NCBI GenBank assembly: GCA_021648085.1
Contig: JAKITS010000001.1
Span: forward strand, 816,064-880,063
Reading direction: 5' to 3'
Origin: Candidatus Magasanikiibacteriota bacterium
GTDB lineage: Bacteria > Patescibacteriota > Patescibacteriia > Magasanikbacterales > UBA922
Length of the DNA stretch: 64,000 nt
Part shown: piece by piece, positions 900 through 30,157 of the stretch
Layout: every line of letters starts with the position of its first letter
Numbering within the stretch: the first letter of the stretch is position 1
The notes under the pieces: generated by a model
The model's input: only the letters and a program-made list of their open reading frames with translations
Database searches by the model: none
Told to the model about the DNA's origin: nothing
Made by a program: the position numbers and the translations under genes

Positions 900-1090
900 G
901 TTTTAGTGATATTTTCACGAGATCCCAGCCTGCCGGCAGGCACGGCTTCGACTTCGCTCAGGATGGCGTGATGGAAAGGTGATGTTGTCCCGAGATCCTT
1001 CGGCTGTCGCTCAGGATGACGTGGTTTTATTCACATCATATTAAGCTGAATATAGTGGAGTCGAAACAAACCAGCCAACAGGCACAGTAT
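900..1090. repeat. MITE-like repeat family copy (X units with cctgccggcagg insertion)
   Basis: cgagatcccagcctgccggcaggcacggcttcgacttcgctcaggatggcgtg ... ccgagatccttcggctgtcgctcaggatgacgtg. Confidence 0.8.
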
Positions 1091-1269
1091 CTCGAAGCTT
1101 TATCACCAGAACTATAAATATTCAATGTTCTTTTGTTTTAAACTTAAAGGTACTTATTTCGGCTTATCAATCATTTAATTGATATATAACTATACCACTT
1201 TTTGGCTCTTTTGTCAAGTCTTTTTAACTCTATTTGGCTTATTTTAGCCAAATTTTATATTGATATTTT

Positions 1270-1490
1270 TTGGTTTTTGTGATATTGTTTCGAGATCCTT
1301 CGACTTCGCTCAGGATGACGTGTGTATGTTTTATGTTTTGTTTAGGACGACATGTGAGTATTTTGTGCTTTGCTCCGTTCGGAATGACGTTTTTTATTCA
1401 CGTCATATTGAGCTTCACCTCGTGGAGTTAAAAATAAAAGCTCACGTCATATTGAGCGGAACGAAGTGGAGTCGAAATATCTCGTGTTTG
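1270..1490. repeat. MITE-like repeat family copy
   Basis: tcgagatccttcgacttcgctcaggatgacgtg (1292-1322), hairpin atgacgt..acgtcat, and acgtcatattgagcggaacgaagtggagtcgaaatatctcg (about 1445-1485). Confidence 0.85.
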
Positions 1491-1530
1491 TTTTATTATT
1501 TTTTACTCCTTAGTTTATAAGACAAAATCC

Positions 1531-1559
1531 TTGACAAAATAGAACAATTCATTTATAAT
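1531..1559 (+). promoter_or_regulatory. sigma70-type promoter (TTGACA-17 bp-TATAAT) for rpsT
   Basis: ttgaca at 1531-1536, 17-nt spacer, tataat at 1554-1559, about 30 nt upstream of rpsT ATG. Confidence 0.7.
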
Positions 1560-1588
1560 GCCTGTGTTTAATAAACTTCAAGAAAATT

Positions 1589-1858
1589 ATGCCAAATAAA
1601 GATAATGCCAAAAAGGCACTAAGACAATCAATTAAAAGAGCTCTCAGAAACAAAAAAGTAAAAATAGCTTACAAAGAAGCTGTGAAAAATGTAGATAAAG
1701 CTATTTTAGCTGGATCAAAAGATCTAACAGCATTAGTTGTGAAAGCTCAAAAGAAATTGGATAAAGCTGCAAAACTAAATGTAATCAGCAAAAATACTGC
1801 TGGAAGAAAAGTAGCAAGATTGATGAGAAAAATGTCAAAAGTTAAGGTCGCAAAGTAA
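1589..1858 (+). CDS. rpsT: 30S ribosomal protein S20
   Basis: 89 aa, basic, N-term MPNKDNAKKALRQSIKRALRNKK matches S20 family; consensus sigma70 promoter 1531-1559 upstream, hairpin terminator downstream. Confidence 0.9.
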   Translation: MPNKDNAKKALRQSIKRALRNKKVKIAYKEAVKNVDKAILAGSKDLTALVVKAQKKLDKAAKLNVISKNTAGRKVARLMRKMSKVKVAK

Positions 1859-1959
1859 AGAAATATTGTTTTAAAAAACCTCGATGTAATAATCAAGGTT
1901 TTTTTGTTTAAATAAAAAAGGGAATTGGCATTTTTTTAATTATTTATATTTTAGTGATA

Positions 1960-2140
1960 TTTCTACGAGATCCCTGCCTGCCGGCAGGAAGCGGAGTCGA
2001 AATGACGTGACTTAATATACGTCATCCTGAGCGGAGTGAAACGAAGTCGAAATATCTCGGGAAAGTATCATTAGAACTTTGAATATTTTATGTTCTAATG
2101 ATCCTGAATCGAGATCCTTCGACTTCGCTCAGGATGACGT
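1960..2140. mobile_element. MITE-like element (complete 122-bp copy 2019-2140 plus adjacent half-unit)
   Basis: ACGTCATCCTGAGCGGAGTGAAACGAAGTCGAAATATCTCGGG - 50-bp palindromic spacer - CGAGATCCTTCGACTTCGCTCAGGATGACGT. Confidence 0.8.
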
Positions 2141-2279
2141 TATGAGATAGCAAACTAAGTAAGAAAAAGAAGAGTGTTCTTTTTATATTTTGTCTTATAT
2201 TGTCTGTGCCATGTCTTATATTGTCTGTGCTATGTCTTTTCTTGTTCTAACCCAAAAGAATTAAGCAAGCATCAGCGAT

Positions 2280-3257
2280 TTATCCTTCTGCAAATTTTCC
2301 AACTAAAACATCTAAAAGTAAAGACTGGTCAACTTGGCCGGTTTTTATTTTTATATCAAAATCCAAAAGTTCTGAGTAGAAATTTTTTAAAGTATCTAGC
2401 GAATAATTATTCGCAGTTGATAAAGATTTTTGTGCCACATACGGATGCATCTTCAAAGTGACGGCAAGAGATTTGCTGTTTACTTGTCCATTTCTTTCTA
2501 CAAAATCTTTGATTTCTAACAAGATCCTACATTGACGCAAAAGCATAGCAAAAATATAAAGCGTATTTTCGCCTTTTTTGTATTGTTGGCGAATCATTGC
2601 ATAAGCATTTTTACTATTTTTATTTAAAATACTATCTATTAAATTGAAAATATTATCATCCGCCTTCTCTGCAACAAACAAATCTACATCTTTGTCTGTG
2701 ATCTCTTCACCATCTTTGTAATCCAAAAGTTGGTCGAGTAGGGAACTAGCTTGCCACATATCTATGGAATTTTTTGCAAGTTTGTTTGAAGCACTCCAAT
2801 TTATAGCACCACCTCTGCTTTGAGCTTCTTTTGCTATCCAACCTCCCAACTCATTTGACTTCAGGACGTCAAATTTGCGCGTGTAGGGCTGTTTGACTAG
2901 CAAAGACATAAGATTCTTCGCAACCTTCTTTTTTACAGTGTCTAAGCCGTCCCAAATCACTACAACATTTTTACTTTCTTTATCAAAAAAACCTTTTTTT
3001 AGGTGTTCTGCAAATAATTCAAAGAGTTTGTCTTGATTTGCAGCAAAAAAATTTTCCAGCACAATCATCTTTTTCTCCGCCAAAAAAGGAACGGTCAAAA
3101 CCTCGTTCCAAATAAACCCAATTTCTTTTGTCTTCTCGCAATCTATTTTTACAGTATTGAACCCTTCTAAATCACGCTTCTCCTTGAAACCTTTTATCAT
3201 TTGATTCAAATATTTTCTACTGCGAAAAGTGTCTTTGCCGTAAATAAAAATTATCAT
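2280..3257 (-). CDS. holA: DNA polymerase III delta subunit
   Basis: 325 aa; length and overall pattern typical of HolA (N-term MIIFIYGKDTF..., C-terminal helical domain); family call from pattern recognition, not a computed alignment. Confidence 0.7.
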   Translation of the reverse strand: MIIFIYGKDTFRSRKYLNQMIKGFKEKRDLEGFNTVKIDCEKTKEIGFIWNEVLTVPFLAEKKMIVLENFFAANQDKLFELFAEHLKKGFFDKESKNVVVIWDGLDTVKKKVAKNLMSLLVKQPYTRKFDVLKSNELGGWIAKEAQSRGGAINWSASNKLAKNSIDMWQASSLLDQLLDYKDGEEITDKDVDLFVAEKADDNIFNLIDSILNKNSKNAYAMIRQQYKKGENTLYIFAMLLRQCRILLEIKDFVERNGQVNSKSLAVTLKMHPYVAQKSLSTANNYSLDTLKNFYSELLDFDIKIKTGQVDQSLLLDVLVGKFAEG

Positions 3258-3295
3258 ATGTACTTATTCTAGTTTAATACCTTGCTATTGACAAG

Positions 3296-3395
3296 TAAAC
3301 AAAAGATGAATCACTTAGTTTGATGAATCGTTATACTTGATAAATCATTTTCGCTTCGCTGGATTTGATAAATCGCTTCGCTTGGATAAGACAGG
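3296..3395. repeat. short repeat family 2 (TTGATGAATCGCTTCGCTTG-like), multiple units
   Basis: gatgaatcacttagtttgatgaatcg...ttgataaatcattttcgcttcgctggatttgataaatcgcttcgcttgg; relatives at 7925-7972, 9105-9215, 20425-20470. Confidence 0.7.
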
Positions 3396-3456
3396 GAATT
3401 GACAAACTTTGTTTTTTATGTTTAAATATTACGACCTCAAATCAAAGGAGTAGGCA

Positions 3457-4023
3457 ATGAGAAAGTTCTTTTCAGCAATATTCGTGTTCTCAATTTTAAC
3501 TTTGTTTTGTTTTCCAATTTTTGGGCAGGGCTATGTTAGTTTGGAAACTGAAGTTTCAGTTCAAAATAATGTGGCCAGTATAAACACACTCGGGTATGCC
3601 GAGGTCGACAACATATTTATATTTGCTTCTGTTAGTGAAAATTTTTCGCAAGTTTATGGAGGACTAACAATCTCCGCCAACGAATTGTCTGCCGGCGCAG
3701 GAATAGGCGTGACAGGTGAAAATAATTTTAGAACTGCTTTATTTACTAGTTGGAGAGAAAAGTACTATTCTTTTTCGGCTGTAGGTGAAATGGATTTGAG
3801 TGAAGACTCAAAAGGAAACTTCTTTTACATTTTAAAATTCTTGACATATTCTCCAGAAAACATACTTAGATACGGATGGGTTTTAAGAAGGTTTAATGGT
3901 TTTGGACCACTTCTCGAATTCAATTTTGGTAGCCATATCACGGTCTGGAGTTCGCCGGTAATGTACGGCATCTTGGAAACAGGAAAAGTCAGCTCCATGT
4001 TTGGACTACGGATAAAAAACTAG
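3457..4023 (+). CDS. hypothetical secreted protein (N-terminal signal peptide)
   Basis: 188 aa, hydrophobic N-term MRKFFSAIFVFSILTLFCFPIFGQG; Gly/Ser/Asn-rich; followed by strong hairpin terminator 4028-4060. Confidence 0.5.
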   Translation: MRKFFSAIFVFSILTLFCFPIFGQGYVSLETEVSVQNNVASINTLGYAEVDNIFIFASVSENFSQVYGGLTISANELSAGAGIGVTGENNFRTALFTSWREKYYSFSAVGEMDLSEDSKGNFFYILKFLTYSPENILRYGWVLRRFNGFGPLLEFNFGSHITVWSSPVMYGILETGKVSSMFGLRIKN

Positions 4024-4027
4024 AAAC

Positions 4028-4060
4028 CAAAACCGTCTCGATACTTCGAGACGGTTTTTT
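4028..4060 (+). terminator. intrinsic terminator
   Basis: aaaaccgtctcgatacttcgagacggttttttt. Confidence 0.8.
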
Positions 4061-4084
4061 TATTTCTTATTTATATTTTAATTG

Positions 4085-4395
4085 TTCTGTGGCGAGATCC
4101 TTCGGCTTCGCTCAGGATGACGTATTTAACTTTTTACTTTATAGACTTTACGAACTTTCTACTCTGTCATCCTAAACTCGATTAGGGATCCAGAGTTTGT
4201 ATCACAATATAATTATTACAGTTTGTGTATTTTTATATAAAAATAATTCTGGTTTGTAGACTCCTAGATTCCCAGTCGAGCTGAGAATGACAGAAAACCC
4301 AACGCACGTCATATGGAGCGGAGTGAAACGGAGTCGAAAATTTAACACACGTCATATTGAGCGGAACGAAGTGGAGTCGAAATATCTCAGTTTAG
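4085..4395. repeat. MITE-like repeat family units plus Z module (ggattcccagtcgagctgagaatgacag)
   Basis: gcgagatccttcggcttcgctcaggatgacgta (about 4092-4124), Z module about 4268-4300, two Y-prime units about 4305-4390. Confidence 0.8.
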
Positions 4396-4439
4396 TATTA
4401 TTAAAATATAAATAATTAAATTAAAACTTTAGCCTTTTT

Positions 4440-7139
4440 TTATTTTAATTCACCCCAATTTTTGGCATGGCACGTATGAATTTCGAGTGGTGCCAACATT
4501 TTTGTGCTGTGATCAAAATGTTGCACAGTTTGCATTACCTCTTCTACAACTTTTGTCACTTTGTTTACCAAACTGCTTTTTACCTCAAAAATCAATTCGT
4601 CGTGAACTTGCAAAACTATTTTTACATCTTCAAGTTTAAAATTTTTCTTTAATCTTTTGTCAATTTCTATCATCGCAAGTTTGAGCATATCAGCTGCTGT
4701 TCCCTGAATTGGCATATTTACTGCCATTCGCTCACCAGAGTTTCTCACCTGAAAATTTGATGCTCTCAATTCTGGAATATATCTGCGTCTTCCAAAAAAA
4801 GTTTCAACATATCCAAGTTTTTTTGCAGAATCCAAAGTTTCGTCTATATATTTTTTGACACCTTCAAATTCCTCAAAATATTTTTTTATAAATTCTTTTG
4901 CTTGTTCGTTGGAAATTCCTGTTCTGCTCGCCAAACCATATGAACCCATTCCATACAAAACACCAAAATTTACCTCTTTGGCACGACTTCGCATTGTTTT
5001 TGTAACCTCATCTTCTGACACACCGTTTATCGCTGCCGCAGTTGCTGTGTGAATGTCTTTTCCTTCGTTAAAAATCTCCAACATCTTTTTATCTTTTGCA
5101 AGCGAAGCCACAATTCTAAGCTCAATCTGCGAATAGTCGGCTGAAACCAGTTCAAAACCACTCGGTGTGCTAAAAGCCGTACGAATTTCTCTGCCAATTT
5201 CCGAACGCGTAGGAATATTCTGCAAATTTGGTTTTGAGCTAGAAAGTCTACCGGTTGTTGTCACGGCTTGATTAAAATCTGTATGAATTCTATTTGTATT
5301 TTTATTTATAATTTTTGGCAAAGCATCTACATAAGTATTTTTCAATTTTGACAATTCACGAAACTCCTCTATAAGTGGAATTATGTTGTGAAAACTTCGC
5401 AATTTATTCAATTCGCTAGAAGCAGTGGAGTAGCCAGTTTTACCTTTTTTAATTCCAGCGGTTGACAAAGCCAAATCTTTGAACAAAATATCGCGAAGCT
5501 GAACAGACGAGGCAATATTAAAATCTTTTCCTGCCAATTTATGTATTTTTTCAGTTGTTTTTTCCAATTTTGCGTTTATTTGTTTTGCCAATTTATTTAA
5601 TTTTTCTTTATCAACAAATATTCCATTTAGTTCTATTTGCGCCAAAACTTTTATCAACGGCATTTCAATTTTATGAAACAAATCATCATTTTTCTGTTCT
5701 TTCAAAAATTTATGATATTCTTCGTAAAGTCTGAAAAAATATTCAACCCCCTCATGTACGACTTCTGTACCATCATCAAACAAACTCGTTTGAACATTTT
5801 CTTTTATTTCTTTTCCAAGTTCTCTTGCAACAATACTTTTCAAATCGTGAGCACGGGTGCTAGAATTTGTTAAATACGAAGCAATCATCAAATCAAAAAG
5901 TTTGTTTTTAATTTCAATTCTATTTACTAACAAAATTTTTGTAAGTTGTTTTAGATTATGCCCAAAAAGCAAATTATCCCCAGAAAACAAAGAATAAAAA
6001 GTTTTCTTTTGATCATTTTCAAAAGCACGAAAATCGAAAAAATAATTTTCATTTTTAATTCCACACGCAAATCCTATCAATTTATTTCCTAAAACATCTT
6101 CATTTCCTAAAATTTCTTTACAAAAAAATTCTTTTTCTTTTTTTAATTTTGAAACTATTTTTTCTACATCTTCTACTGAAACTTTTACAATTTCTCTTTT
6201 TTCTTTTTCGGTAGATTTTGTTGGAAGATCTTTTTCCTCGTCGCCAAACATCGCAGAAGCGCGTTTTACCAAACTATTAAATCCAAAACCATTGAACAAA
6301 GCCACAACTTCTTCCAAATCTATTGTTTGTGTCTCGGCATCTTTTACTTTGAAATTTAGACCTTTTACATCTGTCACAATTGTTGCCAATTTTTTACTCA
6401 AAAAAGCCATTTCCTTGTCTGCTTTTAGCAGTTTTACAGTTCGCGGTTTTATTCCTTTTTCTTCCAAACTATCTATTTGCTCATAAATTTTCTCCAAATT
6501 CCCAATTTTAGAAAGCAGTTCATTTGCGCCTTTATCTCCAATTCCTTTTACTCCTGGAATATTATCAGATGGATCGCCTTTTAAAGATTTAAAATCAACC
6601 ATCATTTCTGGTGCAAAACCAAATTTTTCTTTTACAGCCTTTTCATCGAACATTACCACATCTGTTATTCCTTTGCGGATCAAATATACATGGATATTTT
6701 CATCTACCAACTGCAATAAATCTTTATCGCCACTTGAGATTATAACCTGCCCATCCCACTTTTTACTTAAATCTTTTGCAATTGTTCCTATCACATCATC
6801 AGCCTCAAAACCTGCTTTTTGATAAATTGGAATATCAAAAGCCTTCACAACTTCGTGCACAAGTGGAATTTGATCATATAATTCTTGGTCTGTCTTTACC
6901 CGCTTTACCTTATATTCTTTGTACAGATCATCTCGAAAAGTCTTTTTTGCAACATCAAAACTCACAGCCAAATATTCTGGTTTTATAGTATCCAAAACCT
7001 TCAAAAGCATAGAAGCAAAACCATACACAGCGTTCACCTGCACGCCAGCTTTGGTAGTAAACGGAGGAAGCGCGTGATAAGCTCTGTGGATTATCGCATT
7101 CCCATCTATAATTACAAATTTTTCTTTTTTATTAGTCAT
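4440..7139 (-). CDS. polA: DNA polymerase I
   Basis: 899 aa; N-terminal 5'-3' exonuclease domain, C-terminal family A polymerase motifs (DYSQIELR, QVHDELIFEV); 3'-5' exo motifs appear degenerate. Confidence 0.95.
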   Translation of the reverse strand: MTNKKEKFVIIDGNAIIHRAYHALPPFTTKAGVQVNAVYGFASMLLKVLDTIKPEYLAVSFDVAKKTFRDDLYKEYKVKRVKTDQELYDQIPLVHEVVKAFDIPIYQKAGFEADDVIGTIAKDLSKKWDGQVIISSGDKDLLQLVDENIHVYLIRKGITDVVMFDEKAVKEKFGFAPEMMVDFKSLKGDPSDNIPGVKGIGDKGANELLSKIGNLEKIYEQIDSLEEKGIKPRTVKLLKADKEMAFLSKKLATIVTDVKGLNFKVKDAETQTIDLEEVVALFNGFGFNSLVKRASAMFGDEEKDLPTKSTEKEKREIVKVSVEDVEKIVSKLKKEKEFFCKEILGNEDVLGNKLIGFACGIKNENYFFDFRAFENDQKKTFYSLFSGDNLLFGHNLKQLTKILLVNRIEIKNKLFDLMIASYLTNSSTRAHDLKSIVARELGKEIKENVQTSLFDDGTEVVHEGVEYFFRLYEEYHKFLKEQKNDDLFHKIEMPLIKVLAQIELNGIFVDKEKLNKLAKQINAKLEKTTEKIHKLAGKDFNIASSVQLRDILFKDLALSTAGIKKGKTGYSTASSELNKLRSFHNIIPLIEEFRELSKLKNTYVDALPKIINKNTNRIHTDFNQAVTTTGRLSSSKPNLQNIPTRSEIGREIRTAFSTPSGFELVSADYSQIELRIVASLAKDKKMLEIFNEGKDIHTATAAAINGVSEDEVTKTMRSRAKEVNFGVLYGMGSYGLASRTGISNEQAKEFIKKYFEEFEGVKKYIDETLDSAKKLGYVETFFGRRRYIPELRASNFQVRNSGERMAVNMPIQGTAADMLKLAMIEIDKRLKKNFKLEDVKIVLQVHDELIFEVKSSLVNKVTKVVEEVMQTVQHFDHSTKMLAPLEIHTCHAKNWGELK

Positions 7140-7194
7140 AGACTGTATTGTATCACTTTTACAAACAGTTTCAAGACATAATCTTTTTACTACT

Positions 7195-7760
7195 GTTTAT
7201 CATTTCTAGCTTAACCAGAAATCAACCGATCCCCAAGCTGAGGATGACAAGAAGGATATAATGATAGATGATACAGATTCGTGTGTAAACTCATTCCTTA
7301 CTTAATCTGCTCAATCTACTTTTCTCTCACGTCATCCCGAACGAAGCGAAGCCGAGCTTGAGGGATCTCGAGACAGAATAACAAAAACATTAAATAGTGA
7401 AACAAATACGAGATATTTCGGCTCTACTTCGTTCCGCTCAATATGACGTGAATAAAAAACGTCATCCTAAGCGAAGCTGAAGGATCTCGTGAAAGAATAA
7501 TAAGAACAAAAAATAGTAAAACAAACACGAGATCCTTCGGCTCCACTCCGTTCCGCTCAATATGACGTGAATAAAAAACGTCATCCTGAGCGAAATGGAG
7601 CAAAGCGGAATGAAGTCGAAGGATCTCGAGACAGTATCACAAAAGGAAAAAATATATTAACCCTTGAAAAGATATTAAAAATATGTTATATTTGTGTTGA
7701 GTAAGTGTACTAATGAATTAAAAACGAGATCCTTCGGCTATCGCTCAGGATGACGTGATT
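7195..7760. mobile_element. array of three tandem MITE-like copies plus leader segment (about 565 bp)
   Basis: copies 7329-7449, 7459-7568, 7578-7755 joined by gaataaaaa linkers; 7218-7470 about 85% identical to 19128-19400. Confidence 0.85.
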
Positions 7761-7847
7761 AATTTGTGACTTTCGACTTTATAGACTTTTGACTTTTTTA
7801 CTTAGTCTGCCTAGTCTGCTTAATCGTTAATCTGCTTTTTCTCCAAT

Positions 7848-7922
<75 letters not shown>

Positions 7923-8035
7923 AGATCGTGTAACTTCGTTCGTTTGATCTATCGCTTCGCTTGAAAGAAAAAATATACAAAAATAAAAAAAGCCTTGGAT
8001 GTTTAGTCCGAGGCTTTTGGCTTTTTAGCTTATTT

Positions 8036-8647: not shown

Positions 8648-8726
8648 GTTCTTCTCCGTGTTTAGGCATTTTCATGCCTATTTAAGTTTAGACTGGGTTA
8701 GACTGGGATTGTAAGGAACTTCGATA

Positions 8727-8755
8727 AGTATAGCACAAAAAAAGGGTTTTGTCAA
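8727..8755 (-). promoter_or_regulatory. sigma70-type promoter (TTGACA-17-TATACT) on minus strand
   Basis: revcomp of 8727-8755 reads ttgacaaaaccctttttttgtgctatact. Confidence 0.65.
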
Positions 8756-8778
8756 GCTAAAAGCAGTGATTTTACAAA

Positions 8779-8808
8779 CAAAAAAGAACTTTTTAAAAAG
8801 TTCTTTTT
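8779..8808. terminator. bidirectional intrinsic terminator
   Basis: aaaaaagaactttttaaaaagttctttttt. Confidence 0.7.
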
Positions 8809-8859
8809 TGTTTTTACACTCAATTTACTACACTTTCCTCTATCATCCTCAACTTAATT

Positions 8860-9081
8860 AAAAATCCAAGGTCTACAAACCAGAACTGTGATTCAAACCC
8901 TGGATTCCCAGTCAAGCTGAGAATGACAAAAAAATCCGTACGTCATATTGAGCGGAGTGAAACGGAGTCGAAATATCTCGTGAAAGTATTATCCAAATTA
9001 TGAATATTTAAAGTCTTATGATTTTATTTCGAGATCCGTTCGACTTCATTCCGCTTTGCTGCATTCCGCTCAGGATGACGT
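8860..9081. mobile_element. Z module + complete MITE-like copy (8940-9081)
   Basis: ggattcccagtcaagctgagaatgacaaaaaaatcc then ACGTCATATTGAGCGGAGTGAAACGGAGTCGAAATATCTCG - spacer - CGAGATCCGTTCGACTTCATTCCGCTTTGCTGCATTCCGCTCAGGATGACGTG. Confidence 0.85.
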
Positions 9082-9104
9082 GTTTATTTTTACTTTTTCT
9101 TTTT

Positions 9105-12231: not shown

Positions 12232-12339
12232 AACTTACTATTTATGCTACACTAATAAGGTTAAAATAACAAGAATTAAGTCTGACTATAAGTCAGGCTT
12301 TTTAAATAGACTGCTCTTAAAAGCAATAAGTCTAAATAT

Positions 12340-12867: not shown

Positions 12868-12883
12868 ATATTTCATTTAAACA

Positions 12884-12911
12884 AAAAAGAGCTTTTAAAA
12901 GCTCTTTTTTG
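12884..12911. terminator. bidirectional intrinsic terminator between convergent 3D-domain gene and dnaN
   Basis: aaaaaagagcttttaaaagctctttttt perfect hairpin flanked by A/T runs. Confidence 0.8.
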
Positions 12912-12918
12912 TTTGTTT

Positions 12919-16350: not shown

Positions 16351-16546
16351 ATTTTTTTGAAAAAACCGTATTGTAAGACCTGCCTCAAAACATTGTTTTT
16401 ATTAAAACTTATAAATTTTTAATAAAGAAAACATGTTTTGAGGCAGGTCTTTTGGATTTTTTTGGTATAATGAAATAACAATTAGATTGTAGCTTTATTT
16501 CTTAAAATTTGATATTTAAAGTTTGTAATTTGTTTGTATCTTATTT

Positions 16547-16974: not shown

Positions 16975-17240
16975 TTACTTTTCTGTCATTCCTGACTTGA
17001 CCAGGAATTCAGGAGTCTTTGGTAAATAGACAATGATACAAACCCTGCCTGCCCGCCGGCAGACGGGGGTCATCAATCAAGCTGAGGATGACAGAATACC
17101 CATATGTCATCCTGAGCGAAGTCGAAGGATCTCGGGATAAGTATTACAAAACAAAAAACATTCACAATTTTGGTTATACTTTCCCGAGATTCCTCAAGTT
17201 CCACTTCACTTCGTTTCGTTTCGTTTGAGATGATGTGTAG
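16975..17240. mobile_element. composite repeat: gtcattcctgacttgaccaggaattcaggagtc module + cctgcccgccggcag + Z + MITE copy (17104-17237)
   Basis: atgtcatcctgagcgaagtcgaaggatctcggg ... cccgagattcctcaagttccacttcacttcgtttcgtttcgtttgagatgatgtg. Confidence 0.8.
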
Positions 17241-17989: not shown

Positions 17990-18125
17990 AAAATCACGTC
18001 ATCCTGAGCGATAGCCGAAGGATCTCGGGACAATATTACCAGAACATAAAATATTCAAAGTTCTAATGATACTAAATCGAGATATTTCGACTTCGTTTCA
18101 CTCCGCTCAATATGTCGTATTTTTA
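17990..18125. mobile_element. complete MITE-like copy (17996-18118)
   Basis: cacgtcatcctgagcgatagccgaaggatctcggg - spacer (inverted relative of the 2060 spacer) - tcgagatatttcgacttcgtttcactccgctcaatatgtcgta. Confidence 0.85.
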
Positions 18126-19018: not shown

Positions 19019-19059
19019 ATTTTATGGTTATTTCTTTTATTTTACCATATTTATCATCT

Positions 19060-19660
19060 CTTAGCTTAACCAGGAATCCAGGAGTCTTTAATCACAAAAC
19101 AGTGAAAGAAAAGAAAAAAAGAAAAAAAGAAATAGATCTCCAAGCTAAGGATGACAAGAAGGACATAATGATACATGACACAGATAACATGATACAGATT
19201 CTTATATAAATTCCTTCCTTACTTAATCTACCCAATCTGCTTATTTCTTAATCTACTTTTCTCTCACGTCATCCCGAACGAAGCGAAGCGGAATTTAAAA
19301 AATCTCGAAACAATATCACAAAAACATAAAATAGTGAAACAATCCCGAGATATTTCGACTCCGCTTCGTTCCGCTCAATATGACGTGAACTTTTATTTTC
19401 GACTCCACAAGGTGAAGCTCAATATGACGTGAATAAAAACTTTTCGACTTCACTACACTTTGTTCCGTTTCGTTTGGGATGACGTATAGAGTCTTCTATC
19501 ATTTCTCAGTGAAGCGAGAAATCCCTTAAACATTTTAAAAACACAAAACACATTAATTAAAACACTGAAACGATTTCTCATCCGTATTCTCGGATTCGAA
19601 ATGACAGAAATAAGGTTTAATTATTTATATTTTGGTTATATTGCACCGAGATATTTCGAA
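19060..19660. mobile_element. composite repeat array (paralog of 7195-7760) with extra modules
   Basis: gcttaaccaggaatccaggagtc; leader about 85% identical to 7218-7330; MITE copy 19266-19386; extra Y unit to 19432; module gaagcgagaaatccc...ggattcgaaatgacagaa shared with 28680-28745. Confidence 0.85.
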
Positions 19661-19745
19661 TCTACTTAATATAAAGAAATAATAGTTTTTTAACAATATA
19701 AAAAGCGCCTTCCTTATGGTTAGCGCTTTTGTTTTTTCTTTCTCT

Positions 19746-19955
19746 CTATCTTTTTTTTGTCTCTAACACCTCAATTTTTTTGTGGCAATGACTTTTCCCG
19801 TCTTGCCACTGGTGATGTTTGAGCTTGTGGCAAACCGTCTCCACACGCTCAAATGTTTTTCCATTATACCGACTCACAATTGTGTGTGAGTCGGAAATGG
19901 TGGAAGCACACCCGCTCGCCAAAATGGCGAGCGAGAAGAAAAACAAGTACTTCAT
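19746..19955 (-). CDS. small lipoprotein, paralog 1 (lipobox LASGC)
   Basis: likely start at MKYLFFFSLAILASGCAST; ORF-track N-extension overlaps upstream paralog and is probably not translated. Confidence 0.5.
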   Translation of the reverse strand: MKYLFFFSLAILASGCASTISDSHTIVSRYNGKTFERVETVCHKLKHHQWQDGKSHCHKKIEVLETKKR

Positions 19956-20206
19956 CTTCTCCTCTTTTTTTGTTTCTTTTTTTTGATCGCCCGATACCGT
20001 CGTTGTTGGGCTTTTTCCCAGCTTGTTAGGACGGTACACTGAAATTTGCCGTTTTTAATACGGCAAACTGCGGCTCTCCGCGCTTGATAGCGCGGATTTC
20101 CGTAATACCGCTCACTCGCACTTTGCGAGTCCGCGGTGATCACGATACACCCGCTCGCCAAAATGGCGAGCGAGAAAAAAAGGAGGAAAATTAGCAAATG
20201 TTTCAT
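19952..20206 (-). CDS. small lipoprotein, paralog 2 (lipobox LASGC), poly-Lys/Arg tail
   Basis: likely start MKHLLIFLLFFSLAILASGC; shares signal peptide and nucleotide block cacccgctcgccaaaatggcgagcgagaa with paralog 1; minus-strand promoter TTGACA-17-TATATT at 20343-20371. Confidence 0.5.
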   Translation of the reverse strand: MKHLLIFLLFFSLAILASGCIVITADSQSASERYYGNPRYQARRAAVCRIKNGKFQCTVLTSWEKAQQRRYRAIKKKKQKKRRR

Positions 20207-20474
20207 TTCTTCTCCTTTTTTTTCGTTTCTTTTTTCTTTTCTTTTTTTTCTGTAAGGCATCGCTCCCACGATGCACCAAAAGACACAAGAACCATCACGG
20301 CCCCTCCTTTTTTAGGTTAAAAAATGAAATGAACATCGTTTAAATATACCACAAAAAAGCACTTTTGTCAAGCTTTGTATCTAAAAAAAACAAAAAAGAG
20401 CTAAAAAGCCCTTTTTTGTTCTTATTCTGTCCTAATCCAAGCGAAGAGATTCATCAAATGAAGTGATTCATTAT

Positions 20475-23278: not shown

Positions 23279-23353
23279 AAAATCAGCTAAACAGCTGATT
23301 TTTTATTTGACATTAAGAGTGAAAGTTTATTAAACTTGTATTAAGTTCTTTTT

Positions 23354-23698
23354 ATGGAGGAAAAAATGAAATGTACACAATGTGAAAATGGGCAAATCCG
23401 TGTTTGGGATTATAATGAAAATAAATGTCTTAAAAAAGAAGCTGTATCTTCTATTGGAATTTGTGCTAAGTGTGATAGTTGTTTTGCAAAATTTTTTATT
23501 AAACGGGAAGGTCTTTGTCTTCAATATCTCGATCAAATTTCACAAAATCCTGTTGAGGTTATTTTTGATAAAAGAGGTTTTGAGGTAAGTTGCGGACGGA
23601 GTTGGTTTTTTGAGGGTAAGACTTATAAACCATCAAAAGCTGTTTTGAAAAAATTGGCAAATAGTCCTAAATTGTCTGATTTTATTAAAAAAATATAA
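23354..23698 (+). CDS. hypothetical Cys-rich protein
   Basis: 114 aa with CxxC pairs (CTQCENG...CAKCDSC); bracketed by two hairpin terminators (23275-23306 and 23703-23730); likely true start at MKCTQ (23366) after GGAGG RBS. Confidence 0.4.
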   Translation: MEEKMKCTQCENGQIRVWDYNENKCLKKEAVSSIGICAKCDSCFAKFFIKREGLCLQYLDQISQNPVEVIFDKRGFEVSCGRSWFFEGKTYKPSKAVLKKLANSPKLSDFIKKI

Positions 23699-23758
23699 AA
23701 TCAAAAACCAGCTGAAAAGCTGGTTTTTTGTCTCAGATTATCTGTTTTATGTCTTTTC

Positions 23759-25276: not shown

Positions 25277-25277
25277 A

Positions 25278-25781
25278 TTATTGCTTTTTCTTTAAGCTCG
25301 GAACTACAAGTATCAGCCCCCCTACTATTATCATAATATCCGCTATATTTATAACCGATGTGAACACCCTAAAGTAATCTACCACAAAACCAAGAAATAC
25401 ACGATCTATTAAATTTGAGATGGCTCCTGCAATAACAAGAGATGTTCCAAAAATAAGCCAAAACTTTTTTTTCTTGGTTTTCATTAGAAAAATAATTAAA
25501 CTTGCAATTATAATTGGTATAAATGTGATTAGCAAGAATTTTGGCATAGGAAGACTAAAAGCAATGCCATAGTTTTCATAATATTCCCACCCGACTATAT
25601 TTTTAATTAAATAATAGCTTTTAGATGGATTGTTTACAGCCATACTTTTTAGACTCTGATCCAAAAACAAAAAAAACCCAGATAAAAAAGTTGCTCCTAA
25701 AAGCATTTTTGCACAGAGTATTTTTTGCTTGCTTAAAGCCATTTTAAGCTTCTTCTTTGATTGTTTTTTTACAACTAACAC
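25278..25781 (-). CDS. lspA: lipoprotein signal peptidase II
   Basis: 167 aa, 4 TM; conserved NxGxAF-like GIAFSL and NLIDRVFLGFVVDYF motifs. Confidence 0.8.
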   Translation of the reverse strand: MLVVKKQSKKKLKMALSKQKILCAKMLLGATFLSGFFLFLDQSLKSMAVNNPSKSYYLIKNIVGWEYYENYGIAFSLPMPKFLLITFIPIIIASLIIFLMKTKKKKFWLIFGTSLVIAGAISNLIDRVFLGFVVDYFRVFTSVINIADIMIIVGGLILVVPSLKKKQ

Positions 25782-26118
25782 AAGATCCTGAAGTTGGTCG
25801 TGCTCGTAGTCTTCTTTTGTCTATAGGTTTGTCGCAGTATTTACAAATACCATAAGACCTTTTCTCTATTGAAGTTAGTGCTTTGTTTACGTCGCGCAAC
25901 AACTTTTCCAAGTTTATCTCCAAAGGCTTGTTTACAGCATATTGCTCCATTTCTTGCACATTATCATCTTCATCATCTCCATATTCTGGATAGTTTGCCT
26001 CAAAATCTCCTTTTATCTTAGGATTTTTACGAGTAAATTTAGAAAGCTCTCTTTCTAAACGAGTCTTATCTTTTAGTAATTTTTCTTTTATTTCCCCTAC
26101 AAATTTTGGATCATGCAT
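25744..26118 (-). CDS. DksA/TraR-family C4 zinc-finger protein
   Basis: 124 aa; C-terminal CKYCDKPI...CVSCKK four-Cys finger, N-terminal coiled-coil; overlaps lspA start by 38 nt. Confidence 0.7.
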   Translation of the reverse strand: MHDPKFVGEIKEKLLKDKTRLERELSKFTRKNPKIKGDFEANYPEYGDDEDDNVQEMEQYAVNKPLEINLEKLLRDVNKALTSIEKRSYGICKYCDKPIDKRRLRARPTSGSCVSCKKTIKEEA

Positions 26119-26179
26119 ATTGTTCTACTATTTAAAGTGCTTCTATTATATGAAATAATTCGATTTTTTGCAATAGCTC

Positions 26180-26430
26180 GTAAGAAGAACAAGAAATAAA
26201 TACACATCATCCCGAACAAAGCGAAGTACAAAATACTCACATATTATCCCAAACAAAACGCAAAATATACACACGTCATCCTGAGCGAAGCCGAAGGATC
26301 TCGAAACAATATCACCAAAACATAAAAATAGTGAAACAAACACGAGATATTTCGACTCCACTTCGTTTTGTTTAGTATGATGTGAAGTCCTTTTGTCATT
26401 CCCGACCCCGATCGGGAATCCAGGAGTCTT
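26180..26430. mobile_element. MITE-like copy (26273-26383) plus flanking modules (gtcattcccgaccccgatcgggaatccaggagtc)
   Basis: cacgtcatcctgagcgaagccgaaggatctcgaaac ... cacgagatatttcgactccacttcgttttgtttagtatgatgtg. Confidence 0.85.
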
Positions 26431-26454
26431 TATTCACAGATAATAAAAGAAAGA

Positions 26455-26735
26455 ACAGGAAAGTAGTGTGTTTACTTATTTAAACAAACAAAAAAGGCGT
26501 CCGAATGAGCCTAATAGTTATATTTGCTCTGGACGCCTTGTTTATAGTTCGTCTTCTTTAAGTACGATATTTTCGCAATCTCTGCGAAAGGTATTATTAC
26601 TTAAGGAAGACTCTCTTTACCCCACAGAGGTAGAGCCCTCGGTTCGTCATATAAACGACGAACAATAGTGAAGGTTACCAGTCCAGCTTACGGTTGTTGC
26701 GTCTCATAAGTGCCTTAGGAGACTTTTTTATTTTT
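26455..26735. ncRNA. candidate structured small RNA (unclassified), strand uncertain
   Basis: about 280-bp ORF-free, unusually GC-richer segment with long imperfect stem-loops (gtcttctttaagta...tacttaaggaagac; gttcgtc..gacgaac); intrinsic terminators at both edges (26495-26540 facing minus; 26700-26735 facing plus). Confidence 0.35.
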
Positions 26736-27004
26736 GTTTTTGTTTTTTTGTCCGAAGATAATTGGACAGCTTTTTGAAATGAAAGAGCATTAAAACGCAA
26801 CAATTATAAGCTGGAAAGAGTAGAGTGAAAGAGGTCGATGTAACTCGCAAATAGAACTTTGTGAATTACAGCGTTTGTCAATGAACTATGTCTATATTAT
26901 GCCATATTTTTTAGAGTTTGTCAATGTTGGTGGGATTAGTTTAAATTTGGCTAAATTAAGCCAGTTTTTTTGAACACAAAAGTGTGTGTTAGTAAATACA
27001 AAAA

Positions 27005-27216
27005 AAATTGTGGATAAATTTAAAAAGTTATCCACAGATTTACTAAGTTATCCACAAGTTATCCACATTTTATATTTTTTGTGTAGGACTGAATAATTAT
27101 TTTTGGAGAGTTAGCTGTGTACAAAATGTGTACAACCTGTGGATTTTTCGTGGAAAACTTGAAAATAAAGGCTTGTATAAAATATGTGAACAGACATAAA
27201 AGTTTAGTGTGGATAA
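27005..27216. promoter_or_regulatory. cluster of five perfect DnaA boxes (TTATCCACA) in AT-rich intergenic region
   Basis: ttgtggataaatt (27008), gttatccacag (27038), gttatccacaag (27050), ttatccacatt (27060), gtgtggataagtt (27207); about 11 kb from dnaA. Confidence 0.7.
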
Positions 27217-27313
27217 GTTTAAAATTGAAAAATTTATATATTATTTAAAATGATTTAGTATTTTGTTATTTTTCAAATAATAAAATACCCTCAATTTTTC
27301 AATTGAGGGTAAA

Positions 27314-27394
27314 TACCGGAAACGGGAATCGAACCCGTACGCTTTAAGGCGGGAGATTTTAAGTCTCCTGTGTATACCATTTCACCATTCCGGC
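27314..27394 (-). tRNA. tRNA-Leu (UAA), copy 1
   Basis: minus-strand GCCGGAATGGTGAAATGGTATACACAGGAGACTTAAAATCTCC + long variable arm + CGGGTTCGATTCCCG; anticodon loop CUUAAAA; own promoter (TTGACA-17-TAATTT, minus, about 27420-27455). Confidence 0.8.
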
Positions 27395-27667
27395 ACAAGA
27401 AATTAAAAAATAATGAACTATTTATGAAATTATCATATTTTTTGTTTTTTGTCAATCTTTTTGGATTAAATTTTGGATAAATTATAAAAATAAATATATT
27501 TATTCATTCCCACAACAAAAAAACAGCAATACTGCTGTTTTTGTGCCGCGTTCGAGGGTCTCCCTGTGTAGTTTTGGTTTTCACCAAACCTACCCTTCGA
27601 TTCCCGACATGACACAAGACTTTGTGTCATTCCCACAACAAAAAAACAGCAATACTGCTGTTTTTTG

Positions 27668-27752
27668 TGCCGCGGGCGGGAATCGAACCCGCACTCCTTT
27701 AGGGGGAACAGGATTTTAAGTCCTGCGTGTCTACCAATTCCACCACCGCGGC
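27668..27752 (-). tRNA. tRNA-Leu (UAA), copy 2
   Basis: minus-strand GCCGCGGTGGTGGAATTGGTAGACACGCAGGACTTAAAATCCTG + long variable arm + TTCGATTCCCGCCCGCGGCA; immediately followed by hairpin terminator 27640-27667. Confidence 0.85.
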
Positions 27753-27912
27753 AGGGGTTTGTATGTTTGAAGACAGTCCCATTATGTCTTAATTTTTACA
27801 AAAAGTCAAGATTTATCCTTTTTAGCTTGACAAAAGAGGTTGAAGATGGTATTTTATAATGCATCAGTAACATAGTGTTGCTGGTGTTCAGTTTCAACAT
27901 GGAGGAAGGAAA

Positions 27913-28542
27913 ATGGGCGACAGAGGTCTTTATATGAATAATAATTGGTTTGGTGACATCAATAAATCTGATGACACAAAAAATAAAATAAAACAAACAC
28001 AAAAAAGTGTGCGACATCTTGTGATTGATGCAAGAGTTAAAGCACAAAAGTCCGCTAAAAGAATTTTGGAAGAGGTGGAGCTTCGTGTCCGCGTAATGGA
28101 TAGTAGGTTGGTGGAGTTCATTGTATTTGTCATGGCGAATGAGTGGATCCAGCAAAGTTATTTAGGAATTGACGAGGAACTTAAGAACCTATCACTTCGT
28201 CCACTTTCCTTAGCTCTTGCTCTTCAAGCCAGCTTTTGGGATGGTTTGTTGAAAGAAATTGAAGACAATGAAAATTTAGATATTTCAGCTTTTATTCTAG
28301 AGACAAGAGATAAGGCTATTGTCTCTGGTCAGTTGTTTGTGGAGGATATGAAGCCTTGTTATGAGGAACTTCTTCAAAGATTAAAAAATATAAAAGATCT
28401 GATTTTAGAAATGAAAGGTATGAAAGCCGCTTCAGATTTTGGTAAAATTAAGAATTGTTTTACTTTTACTAGCTACACCCCACTTTCTGTTGCTCTTCGT
28501 GAGCAAAAAAGAGTGTGGGATGAGTTGGTTGAAAAGATCTAA
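27913..28542 (+). CDS. hypothetical protein
   Basis: 209 aa, good RBS (GGAGGAAGGAAAATG); no recognisable family; acidic/helical. Confidence 0.45.
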   Translation: MGDRGLYMNNNWFGDINKSDDTKNKIKQTQKSVRHLVIDARVKAQKSAKRILEEVELRVRVMDSRLVEFIVFVMANEWIQQSYLGIDEELKNLSLRPLSLALALQASFWDGLLKEIEDNENLDISAFILETRDKAIVSGQLFVEDMKPCYEELLQRLKNIKDLILEMKGMKAASDFGKIKNCFTFTSYTPLSVALREQKRVWDELVEKI

Positions 28543-28599
28543 AAATAATAAAAAAGATAAGCAGAATAACAAAGCCAGCGGAACAACCGCTGGCTCTTT

Positions 28600-28870
28600 T
28601 TTTATAAAAAATATTGTACATTATGCTTATTCCGGTCATCTCGAGCGAAGTGAGAGAGCGCTTAAGTGTTTTAAAAACAACACACTTTAATAATAAAGCT
28701 TAAGCGATTTCTCACTTACATACTTGGGTTCGGAATGACAGAACAAAAGGAACTAAGGTTTTATTATAATTATTTATATTTTATGAAACTGTATGGGGAT
28801 ATTTCGACTCCACTTCGTTTCGCTCAATATGATGTGAAAGAAAGACCTCTTCGAGGTTAAGATCTAAGAC
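28600..28870. repeat. degenerate composite repeat (shares modules with 19500-19640)
   Basis: ggtcatctcgagcgaagtgagagagcg...ttcggaatgacagaa...gatatttcgactccacttcgtttcgctcaatatgatgtg. Confidence 0.7.
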
Positions 28871-28966
28871 TATTCCGTAGTTAAGCGAAGAAGAAAGTTA
28901 GAAAGCTCTTTCCTGCTTAATTCTTATTTTTTGTATCATGTTATCTGAATCATGTATCATACTCTC

Positions 28967-29962
28967 TTACCAATCTAAACTTCCTGCGTTTTGGTATTCT
29001 GTCACTCTTGTTTCAAAGAAATTTTTTTCTTTTTTTAGGTCAATAATTTCACTCATCCACGGAAATGGATTTTGGTCATTATAAACTTTTGGTAAATTTA
29101 TTCGCTCCAATCTTCGGTCTGCAATGTGGCGAACATATTCTTTGATAATTTCTGGTTGTAATCCTAAAATTCCTCTTGGTAGGCAATCGTCAACATAAGC
29201 TTCTTCTAATTTTACAGCTTCTTGAATTGTATTTGAAACAGAATTTTTAAACGCTTCTGTCCAAATTTCTGGATTTTCAGAAATAATTGTATTTATCAAA
29301 TCCACTCCAAAAGCTAAATGTACAGATTCATCTCGCAAAATATATTGAAACTGCTCACCAACACCAACCATTTTGTTTTGGCGAAGTAGGGAAAGCATCA
29401 TCGCAAAACCAGCGTAAAAGAAAATTCCTTCCATTACAACATAATATCCAATCAAATCGTATACAAATTTTTGCATATTTTCCGTTGTGTTTGTCTCAAA
29501 ATTTGGATCAAAGATCGATGTTGTAATATTTACCACAAAATCATCTTTGGCTTTTATACTTGGAACAGTGATGTACATATTGTAAATTTCTTCTGGATCT
29601 AATCCCAAAGAATCACAACAATATATAAAAGTATCGGTGTGAACGGCTTCCTCGTATGCTTGGCGAAGTAGATATTGACGACATTCTGGATTTGTGACAT
29701 GTCTGTAAACTGCCAAAACGATATTATTTGCAGTCAAACTCTCGGCGGTAGAGAAAAATCCCAAATTCCACATTATCATTCTACGCTCTTCCTTGCTAAG
29801 TCCACCTTGTTTTTTCCAAAGCTCTACATCTTGTTGCATTGGTACCTCTTCTGGAACCCAATTGTTTGCAACACCAGCTTTGTAATGAACTCTTGCCCAA
29901 GGATATTGAAAGGGCAGTATTTTATTTGGATCGGTCGTTGAATTGTTTAATATACTTTTCAT
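28967..29962 (-). CDS. nrdB: ribonucleotide reductase class Ia beta subunit
   Basis: 331 aa; di-iron ligand motifs (EEAVHTDTF, ...EGIFFYAGFA...RDESVHLAFG) and radical tyrosine region. Confidence 0.9.
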   Translation of the reverse strand: MKSILNNSTTDPNKILPFQYPWARVHYKAGVANNWVPEEVPMQQDVELWKKQGGLSKEERRMIMWNLGFFSTAESLTANNIVLAVYRHVTNPECRQYLLRQAYEEAVHTDTFIYCCDSLGLDPEEIYNMYITVPSIKAKDDFVVNITTSIFDPNFETNTTENMQKFVYDLIGYYVVMEGIFFYAGFAMMLSLLRQNKMVGVGEQFQYILRDESVHLAFGVDLINTIISENPEIWTEAFKNSVSNTIQEAVKLEEAYVDDCLPRGILGLQPEIIKEYVRHIADRRLERINLPKVYNDQNPFPWMSEIIDLKKEKNFFETRVTEYQNAGSLDW

Positions 29963-29977
29963 ATTTTTTTATTTAAA

Positions 29978-30108
29978 CACATCATTCTAAACGAAATTGA
30001 AAGATCTCAAAAAAACTTAGAAGAAATACGAATATTTATAATTTTGGTTATATTATTTCGAGATATTTCGACTTCACTTTGTTTTGCTCAATATGATGTG
30101 TGTATTTT
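29978..30108. repeat. degenerate MITE-like copy in nrdA-nrdB intergenic spacer
   Basis: cacatcattctaaacgaaattgaaagatctcaa ... tcgagatatttcgacttcactttgttttgctcaatatgatgtg. Confidence 0.75.
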
Positions 30109-30157
30109 TTGTTTATCTTTTCCAATACTTAGTCTGCCCAATCGTTAGCGTGTTATT

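Follow-up and report, generated by a model that had tools for sequence, protein, structure and literature searches.

What are the repeats that fill the spaces between genes in the dnaA region of a small-genome bacterium? The question is raised by a 64-kb stretch of DNA (the window; contig JAKITS010000001.1, positions 816,064 to 880,063) from a Candidatus Magasanikbacteria metagenome-assembled genome (MAG), the host being a bacterium of the Candidate Phyla Radiation (CPR), or Patescibacteria. A preliminary description had proposed a lineage-specific and possibly undescribed family, either of transposable elements of the miniature inverted-repeat kind (MITEs) or of structured repeats resembling repetitive extragenic palindromes (REPs) and bacterial interspersed mosaic elements (BIMEs). 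We find that the repeats are built from small oriented hairpin modules, that the same modules occur in about a dozen phyla, and that elsewhere they flank genes for GIY-YIG nucleases of the Ssn family. They are probably Ssn-related motifs (SRMs) that form a divergent class, called M-type below, within the superfamily of CGTC-tagged REPs.

An abundant intergenic repeat family

With at most one mismatch allowed, the motif ACGTCATNNTGAGCG has 24 matches in the window where 0.03 would be expected, all of them intergenic and located between 0.9 and 30.1 kb. The tail motif TCGAANNATCTCG has 20 matches (0.58 expected). All but one of the ACGTCAT and ATGACGT words lie inside repeat blocks at 0.9 to 30.1 kb, and none is found between 32 and 64 kb. 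The family is thus real, far above chance and at the places reported for it. Self-BLAST, the self-comparison proposed in the preliminary description, delimits 14 repeat blocks that span positions 901-30103 and cover at least 2.0 kb (E <= 1e-3), in agreement with the 14 loci counted earlier in the first 30 kb. The figure of about 4 kb that went with this count was somewhat high, as we estimate about 3 kb of repeat DNA once decayed copies are counted. The window is AT-rich (33% GC), and intergenic DNA amounts to 9.3 kb in its first half versus 2.6 kb in its second. The DnaA protein encoded in it shows 100% identity to one from a Candidatus Magasanikbacteria MAG.

Every copy stands between real genes. 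The open reading frames (ORFs) 1260-1520 and 26146-26361, whose similar peptides had been ascribed to sequence conservation rather than coding, are indeed pseudo-ORFs that read through modules.

Anatomy of the modules

The ends of each unit had been described as inverted copies of one 31-40 bp module. They are inverted, but the two arms usually differ in type and each is itself a hairpin. Two module types account for most copies: M1 (31 nt), which reads ACGTC-AT-CCT-GAGCGAAGTCGA-AGG-AT-CTCG, and M2 (41 nt), which reads ACGTC-AT-ATT-GAGCGGAACGAAGTGGAGTCGA-AAT-AT-CTCG. Both are self-complementary, through pairing of ATCCT with AGGAT in M1 and of ATATT with AATAT in M2. A terminus is an oriented hairpin module consisting of a (C/T)GTC tag, the half-stem AT-NNN, the interior GAGCGAAGYCGA, the complementary half-stem N'N'N'-AT and a tail. 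In the M modules of the window the unpaired tag is always ACGTC, usually with a C before it; the 5-bp stem opens with A-T then T-A and goes on with three freely covarying pairs. The interior is GAGCGAAGYCGA itself (12 nt) in M1 and a 22-nt expansion of it in M2, and the tail is CTCG.

The typical unit is an M1+M2 heterodimer, or doublet, with tags outward, tails inward and a spacer of about 50 nt. Two spacer classes were distinguished, class A in doublets U1, U2 and U3, and class B in U4, U5, U6 and U8. No direct repeats flank any of the nine units, and the target-site duplications that the preliminary description proposed to look for are lacking at all nine. Folded as one strand, doublet U1 gives a long and very stable hairpin (-61.8 kcal/mol, z = -10). 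Among the established elements of nucleic acid structure are sheared G.A pairs and GNA loops, and the interior of a module may well prolong the helix by G.A pairs in tandem, a single G-C pair and a small loop. On the tag strand, wobble pairs outnumber A.C mismatches 10 to 2, which is consistent with the use of one single strand.

Presence of the module in about a dozen phyla

An exact 26-mer from M1, GATCCTTCGRCTTCGCTCAGGATGAC, recurs across about a dozen phyla, in at least 120 stretches with unrelated flanking sequence, and the claim of lineage specificity has to be abandoned. By phylum, the hosts include Patescibacteria, Bacteroidota, Verrucomicrobiota, Acidobacteriota, Chloroflexota, Bacillota, Pseudomonadota, Fibrobacterota, Nitrospirota, Gemmatimonadota, Planctomycetota, Armatimonadota and Nitrospinota. 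At a finer level, they include Saccharimonadales, Peribacteria, Flavobacterium, Sphingobacterium, Rhodothermales, Verrucomicrobia, Acidobacteria, Thermomicrobiales, Dehalococcoidia, Clostridia, Fibrobacter, Gamma-, Alpha- and Betaproteobacteria, Nitrospirota, Gemmatimonadota, Pirellulales, Armatimonadota and Nitrospinales. The private MITE of one lineage was a false lead that can now be removed; the system to which these repeats belong is among the most widespread of its kind, that of small repeats, in bacteria.

The modules from these phyla carry the tags TGTC (163), CGTC (41), GGTC (13) and AGTC (10). Their interior GAGCGAAGYCGA hardly varies, and it grows through the addition of short tandem units. 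In 214 of 227 harvested modules the variable stem pairs are Watson-Crick at all three positions, with more than 11 different triplets. Covariation was also measured on 33 modules that had not been selected by the search pattern: 98% of cells were paired, and double-sided changes were seen in 30 cells compared to 8.8 in shuffles (none of 500 shuffles reached this value), while slid controls gave 14 to 62%. An inverted second module lies 20-54 nt past the tail, tails facing, in 47 of 136 instances, and tags face each other in 5 of the 136. This tails-facing dimer is the same doublet as in the window.

Relation to the CGTC-tagged REPs

Di Nocera et al. 2013 (PMC3733652) defined CGTC-tagged REPs by an unpaired CGTC or TGTC tag, an 8-9-bp stem opening with AT, a 4-5-nt loop and a CCA-like tail, and found them mostly as inverted dimers, without a dedicated transposase. 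When the tag was examined (CGTC, or its TGTC and CCTC variants), all 24 module heads of the window proved to be A(C/T)GTC or a one-mismatch variant of it. The A-T/T-A opening of the stem holds in 33 of 33 modules (columns 5/26 are AU and 6/25 are UA; the harvest itself required AT at both ends) and also in all listed modules of the window. M1 and M2, with 5 Watson-Crick pairs enclosing 12 or 22 nt, fall outside the published stem and loop sizes.

The window also contains modules of canonical form, Z and Q, with a TGTC tag, an 8-bp stem starting with AT, a 5-6-nt loop and a CCAG tail. Over the five Z/Q-type modules (starting at 4164, 4266, 8902, 16984 and 26394) the stem is 8 bp (7 bp at 16984) and the loop 5-7 nt. 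Tails are CCAG or CTAG in the Z/Q type and CTCG or CCCG in M modules, and CCA occurs in 20 of the 40 canonical modules of the data set. The preliminary description had placed Z, CCAGGAATCCAGGAGTC and CCTGCCGGCAGG correctly but read them as extra leaders; Z and Q are hairpin repeats in their own right, canonical ones within the same superfamily. Because tag, AT-first stem and inverted dimers fit the definition, we assign the whole family to the CGTC-tagged REPs. Doublets, single modules and the canonical relatives Z and Q together form intergenic mosaics of the BIME or neisserial NIME kind.

GIY-YIG nuclease genes between modules at other loci

In Neisseria meningitidis, SsnA is a 94-aa single-domain GIY-YIG protein that binds NTS (CGTCATTCCCGCGMAVGCGGGAATCYRG), an oriented variant of the dRS3 repeat, as single-stranded DNA (ssDNA) and cuts just upstream of it; it is inactive on double-stranded DNA, on RNA and on the opposite strand (Chenal et al. 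2025, PMC11893778). The same study reported ssn genes flanked by SRMs across phyla, likened the NTS-ssnA-NTS arrangement to an insertion sequence (IS), and showed that the system modulates natural transformation.

Clustering of the ORFs within 700 nt of the 136 cross-phylum instances revealed no common neighbour gene and no transposase. Such a census is the wrong search direction for a single-copy partner, and starting from GIY-YIG genes succeeded. At loci from CPR, Verrucomicrobia and Phycisphaerae, small GIY-YIG genes are enclosed precisely by inverted M-type modules whose tags point outward. On a Magasanikbacteria contig (L168), the order is TGTCATCCCGAGCGTAGCCGAGGGATCCCTTA, the gene (2396-2686), then TAAGGGATTCC...GGAATGACA. 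A Verrucomicrobia locus (L024) has an exact M1 on each side of the GIY-YIG gene; among the Phycisphaerae, the gene is flanked on both sides at L201 and L207, and at L217 by a downstream module only, after the stop codon. The L168 contig also bears a geneless doublet directly upstream of the cassette, and the right arm of this doublet is identical to that of the cassette at 47 of 48 positions; the doublet is apparently derived from the cassette by deletion.

Homologues of the L168 protein number more than 6,600, and over-long gene calls among them carry module-derived peptides, VILSEAKNP and EVEES at the N end, DPSLRSG and RDSS..ARND at the C end. In the viral_contigs set, GTCAT hairpins stand no farther than 130 nt from at least 9 of 11 close homologues. 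Scored with a strict detector, module density is 3.3 per kb near close homologues, compared to 0.085 far from them and 0.066 around 36 distant GIY-YIG controls. The Magasanikbacteria protein P0121, from L168, shares 49% identity with the ssnA orthologue of N. gonorrhoeae, around which six NTS copies lie in the fetched locus; on this ground we take the M-type modules to be the SRMs of one Ssn clade. Beyond the genome under study, Magasanikbacteria MAGs do contain ssn genes. NCBIfam holds no informative family for the nuclease, and a PDB sequence search returned UPF0213 structural-genomics entries only.

The association between ssn genes and flanking hairpins is already known (PMC11893778), and CGTC-tagged REPs are an established group (PMC3733652). 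The family as such was therefore not undescribed, and a match to a known repeat is what the preliminary description itself had named as speaking against that idea. New here are the M-type class that flanks Ssn-family genes and escapes the published SRM search string, and the presence in a CPR genome of doublets resembling REPINs (REP doublets forming hairpins). Full-text literature searches did not find the module sequence or the pseudo-peptides.

Some further arrangements were seen near GIY-YIG genes. In a Phycisphaerae population (L207-L215), a tandem array of direct GTCACCCCGACCGGAGCGGAGGGGTCTC modules with a period of about 47 nt extends 30-300 nt past the ssn stop codon and varies between samples. 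In one sample, L216, the downstream context is entirely different and departs from that of L207-L215 at a point 1 nt past the GTGAC tag, in the module overlapping the stop codon, which hints at breakpoints located at the tag. Another subfamily of small GIY-YIG proteins (MYYVYCLQS.., MYYTYILKS..) is encoded on the reverse strand of L136 (about 3700-4200) and of L155 (about 3470-4000), between repeated tRNA-Cys-like genes or fragments, some copies of which carry GC-rich inserts in the anticodon or variable region. By appearance, this is a separate mobile arrangement of GIY-YIG genes with tRNAs in CPR genomes.

Repeat dynamics in close relatives

L122, a relative whose DnaA is 82% identical, is syntenic with the window at about 80% genic identity. 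Independent metagenome contigs of this relative carry the same module types in syntenic spacers, which excludes an assembly artefact of a single locus. The content of the spacers differs, however. The array between polA and tRNA-Cys (7329-7756) is absent from the orthologous spacer of L122. The segment 8036-9210 has no counterpart there either, the gene of the penicillin-binding protein (PBP) being followed directly by a terminator-like palindrome and tRNA-Cys; in the window this segment contains an ORF for a 203-aa predicted membrane protein without Pfam match, a Z hairpin and doublet U2. The spacer between the DUF167 and inositol-monophosphatase genes, which holds U3 in the window, is occupied in L122 by two canonical CGTC hairpins with their tails facing. 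Near polA, both have a class-B doublet. In the spacers, divergence from L122 is such that the alignment defines neither empty sites nor the limits of insertions. Doublets with their particular spacers are found only in this lineage and its close relative, and M-type modules are missing from the vicinity of dnaA in most relatives whose DnaA is about 60% identical. We conclude that the repeat family is dynamic within the lineage.

Possible mechanism and alternative explanations

By homology with the Neisseria system, a single-domain Ssn-family GIY-YIG nuclease of about 95 aa would recognise the tag strand as an ssDNA hairpin and would nick it just 5' of the tag. The module-ssn-module cassette would be the likely autonomous form. 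The doublets, in which two tag-outward modules enclose a spacer of about 50 nt as in a REPIN, would have arisen from it by internal deletion and would be serviced in trans; this is the mechanism that we consider most likely. The genome under study may thus encode a cognate Ssn, and Ssn cleavage may drive the copying of the repeats, with possible effects on transformation, recombination or transcripts. We are less confident of an active Ssn partner in this genome than of the identity of the repeats as SRMs of the CGTC superfamily, which we hold to be likely. A bolder proposal is that the M-type doublets are active non-autonomous elements, that the Ssn protein of the cassette acts as the 'transposase' of an unrecognised class that makes no target-site duplications and has spread horizontally through more than a dozen phyla, CPR included, and that the GAGCGAAGYCGA interior (tandem G.A pairs and a mini-loop) is the recognition determinant of one Ssn clade; we regard it as conceivable but rather doubtful.

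Several results weigh against assigning the repeats to the Ssn system. A tblastn search for an ssn homologue in the window found none. The published SRM search string, HGTCWYN(0-2)YYVSBRHN(0-5)WNVSBRGN(0-2)RNCYNB, has no match in the window and does not fit M1, Q or Z. Our implementation works, as it matches the N. meningitidis NTS and the six gonococcal NTS copies, but the string is narrow and misses most of the evident GTCAT hairpins flanking ssn homologues in L222-L230. With nearest-neighbour energies, single M modules fold no better than shuffled sequences (-2.5 kcal/mol, z = +0.5). When all retrieved loci were compared by megablast, near-identical contigs differed by no insertion of 50-600 bp in which modules took part, and no site was clearly seen in both filled and empty states. 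Finally, we know of no case, Neisseria included, in which copying of repeats by Ssn has been demonstrated.

One alternative accepts the SRM or CGTC type of the repeats but places them in a lineage without a working Ssn, as inert relics that drift and are reshuffled by recombination and slippage only. Such a fossil state would account for the lack of an ssn gene in the window and for the many copies decayed toward AT (1030-1066, 17185-17240, 19397-19677 and 26205-26260), and CGTC families have been proposed to be possibly heading toward extinction (PMC3733652). It fits poorly with arms that are identical over 31 nt (1291-1321 and 2110-2140) or, for others, one base apart, with the 87% identity of U5 and U8 over 143 nt, with syntenic spacers whose content differs from that of L122, and with the presence in Magasanikbacteria of ssn genes flanked by such modules. 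We consider it improbable. The MITE proposed initially, that is, an internal-deletion derivative of a DDE-type IS moved by cut-and-paste through its terminal inverted repeats, would explain multicopy intergenic units of 110-140 bp with inverted ends, and each whole unit does fold as one long hairpin. Yet target-site duplications are absent, the arms are usually unequal, are found alone as well, and are self-complementary with covariation, the 26-mer is common to about a dozen phyla, and no transposase is encoded within 700 nt of the 136 instances or among the window ORFs scanned (1-32 kb), the gene associated with the modules elsewhere being that of a GIY-YIG nuclease. A MITE with a cognate transposase is thus very unlikely, and it is the other half of the preliminary proposal, a REP/BIME-like structured repeat, that was right: the elements are non-coding, intergenic and non-autonomous.

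Doublet architecture, absence of target duplications and BIME-like clusters also recall REPs and REPINs of the GTAG type, mobilised by an IS200/IS605-like Y1 transposase, the REP-associated tyrosine transposase (RAYT). The tag here is CGTC and not GTAG, however, the flanked gene is of the GIY-YIG type, no Y1_Tnp domain was seen among the same window ORFs or near the 136 instances elsewhere, and no RAYT flanked by CGTC repeats was found in the published survey (PMC3733652), so that we give this origin hardly any credit. Nor do we believe that the modules act mainly as RNA, in the form of terminators, mRNA stabilisers or small RNAs under selection in transcripts, even though the predicted RNA fold of the doublets is very stable, two single modules lie in or after the nrdAB operon in sense orientation, the Z pair bears a weak Rfam similarity to a Wolbachia RNA and REPs are known to affect mRNA stability (PMC3733652). 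At gathering threshold, the Rfam search suggested by the preliminary description passes only tRNAs in the window, so that no family is assigned, just as the SRM string fails to match the module class. At E <= 5 it adds only weak, generic matches to long-hairpin microRNA (miRNA) precursors and one to Wolbachia WsnRNA46 (Z pair, 4165-4292; 23.7 bits, E = 1.4, the gathering score being 65.3), which may reflect CGTC-type repeats inside that RNA family. Modules occur in both orientations, also in divergent promoter regions, and selection on RNA would leave unexplained both the identity of the interior across phyla and the linkage to an ssDNA nuclease that ignores RNA; a role in RNA may be a side effect. 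Two other identities were dropped: a CRISPR array (short palindromic repeats, clustered and regularly interspaced), as the units are inverted and have no unique spacers, and elements derived from tRNAs or ribozymes, for which there were no matches.

Organisation of the repeat loci

The first 33 kb of the window contain holA, polA, a class A PBP gene, dnaN, dnaA, rpmH/rnpA, yidD, the trigger factor gene, lspA and nrdBA. Upstream of rpsT, the cluster at 918-1066 consists of an M1 with an inserted 12-nt palindrome, CCTGCCGGCAGG (918-969, -), a further M1 (991-1022, -) and a decayed M2 head (1030-1066, +). The next cluster (1291-1484) overlaps the first pseudo-ORF and contains an M1 (1291-1321, -), decayed modules at about 1340-1433 and an M2 (1444-1484, +). 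Between the convergent rpsT and holA genes (1966-2140), a chimeric module with the CCTGCCGGCAGG palindrome (1966-2008, -) precedes doublet U1 (2019-2140), made of an M2-type arm (+), a 50-nt palindromic class-A spacer and an M1 arm (-). The perfect palindrome itself occupies 929-940 and 1977-1988, inside the interiors of two recognisable modules. Its surroundings are 88% identical (892-940 compared to 1940-1988), so that this form is a sub-variant that was itself copied.

Between ORF188 and the 3' end of polA (4093-4389), the order is M1 (4093-4123, -), the canonical, tails-facing Z pair (4164-4191, + and 4266-4293, -; 8-bp stems and 5-6-nt loops), a partial M2 (4306-4346, +) and an M2 (4349-4389, +). 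Between the polA start and tRNA-Cys lies a BIME-like array (7329-7756), given earlier as 7329-7755 and borne out here: U5 (7329-7449) and U6 (7459-7568), with class-B spacers, follow each other with a 119-bp period, tags facing across GAATAAAAA linkers, and the array ends with a long-interior M1 (7578-7628, +) and an M1 (7725-7756, -). The cluster downstream of the PBP1 gene (8902-9081) comprises a canonical Z (8902-8929, -) and doublet U2 (8940-9081), with an M2 arm, a class-A spacer and a long M1 arm.

In the rnpA-yidD spacer (16984-17240) are found a canonical CGTC hairpin (16984-17011, +; TGTC-ATTCCTG..CAGGAAT), an M1 (17104-17134, +) and a decayed, expanded inverted partner (17185-17240, -). 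Doublet U3 (17996-18118), between the DUF167 and inositol-monophosphatase genes, has an M1 arm (+), a class-A spacer and an M2 arm (-). The cluster at 19050-19677 contains a decayed Q-like hairpin (19050-19096), U8 (19266-19386), decayed M2-type modules (19397-19430, - and 19443-19485, -), hairpins at 19497-19525 and 19570-19606, and a decayed tail (19647-19677); the identity of U8 with U5 includes 19 nt of left flank. Upstream of a dksA-like gene (26205-26425), decayed heads (26205-26260) are followed by U4 (26273-26383), with a class-B spacer, and by the canonical hairpin Q (26394-26422, +), which reads TGTC-ATTCCCGA-CCCCGA-TCGGGAAT-CCAG. U1, U2, U3 and U4 are the four single composite units of the preliminary description and correspond to it. 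Single M2-type modules lie downstream of nrdB (28795-28835, -) and in the nrdA-nrdB spacer (30059-30099, -); in both, the tag strand is the mRNA-sense strand.

Other features of the window

Between rpmH and rnpA, a perfect hairpin with a stem of about 30 bp is followed by a T run (16374-16452) and, on either strand, gives low scores with several miRNA-precursor models; it probably serves as an intrinsic terminator or attenuator with a long stem and has no relation to the repeat family. At gene ends (8774-8815, 12879-12918 and 20384-20423) stand three palindromes that resemble each other and have A/T flanks (AAACAAAAAAGARCTTTT..AAAAGYTCTTTTTTGTTT); one of them is conserved in L122, and they are likely bidirectional intrinsic terminators. 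Beside the 19050-19677 cluster, two adjacent ORFs in overlapping frames (97 and 105 aa; 19746-20269) encode similar Lys/Arg-rich proteins with a lipobox (LAILASGC) and appear to be a local duplication. Two tRNA-Leu(UAA) genes stand 270 nt apart at 27313-27752, with short repeated flanks (27504-27550 compared to 27627-27674), and a CGAC-tagged 9-bp hairpin lies in the same region (27605-27633).

Comparison with known systems

Since the M-type class is invisible to the SRM string, published counts of Ssn/SRM pairs and their host range are probably too low. The class also constitutes a natural specificity variant for ssDNA-cutting tools built on Ssn, with free stem positions and a fixed interior. 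About 3 kb of repeats within 30 kb of a CPR genome of about 1 Mb, together with the L168 cassette beside its doublet, offer a compact setting in which to study how CGTC repeats multiply.

With the Ssn/SRM system of Neisseria, the modules share an oriented hairpin with a conserved unpaired 5' HGTC tag, intergenic copies, numbering hundreds as for NTS, and tag-outward modules flanking a GIY-YIG gene of about 95 aa. Unlike NTS, with its 8-bp stem and 4-nt loop, M-type modules have 5 Watson-Crick pairs, a conserved interior of 12-22 nt (GAGCGAAGYCGA) and a CTCG tail; they also differ in their Patescibacteria host and in forming heterodimeric doublets with conserved spacers.

The CGTC-1 to CGTC-4 superfamily, which includes dRS3/NIME of Neisseria, RPE-4 and RPE-6 of Rickettsia and Wolbachia repeats, was reported from five phyla (PMC3733652). 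The repeats of the window resemble it by the (C/T)GTC tag, the A-T/T-A stem opening, a short tail, inverted dimers, mosaic clusters, intergenic location and the lack of an adjacent transposase, and Z and Q fit its definition fully (8-bp stem, 5-6-nt loop, CCAG tail). M1 and M2 depart from it in stem and loop sizes, and in a distribution well beyond the five reported phyla.

Inverted-hairpin doublets with a spacer, absence of target duplications and clusters of alternating orientation are shared with REP/REPIN-RAYT systems and BIMEs. Also as in the REP/REPIN-RAYT case, a single-copy gene flanked by its own repeats would be the likely servicing enzyme, with recognition of ssDNA; the tag is CGTC rather than GTAG, and the partner a GIY-YIG nuclease rather than an HUH/Y1 transposase. 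The Correia/NEMIS MITEs of Neisseria are comparable in size (110-180 bp), inverted ends, intergenic location and copy number, whereas the elements of the window have no target-site duplication and no known parent IS, and their ends are autonomous hairpin modules.

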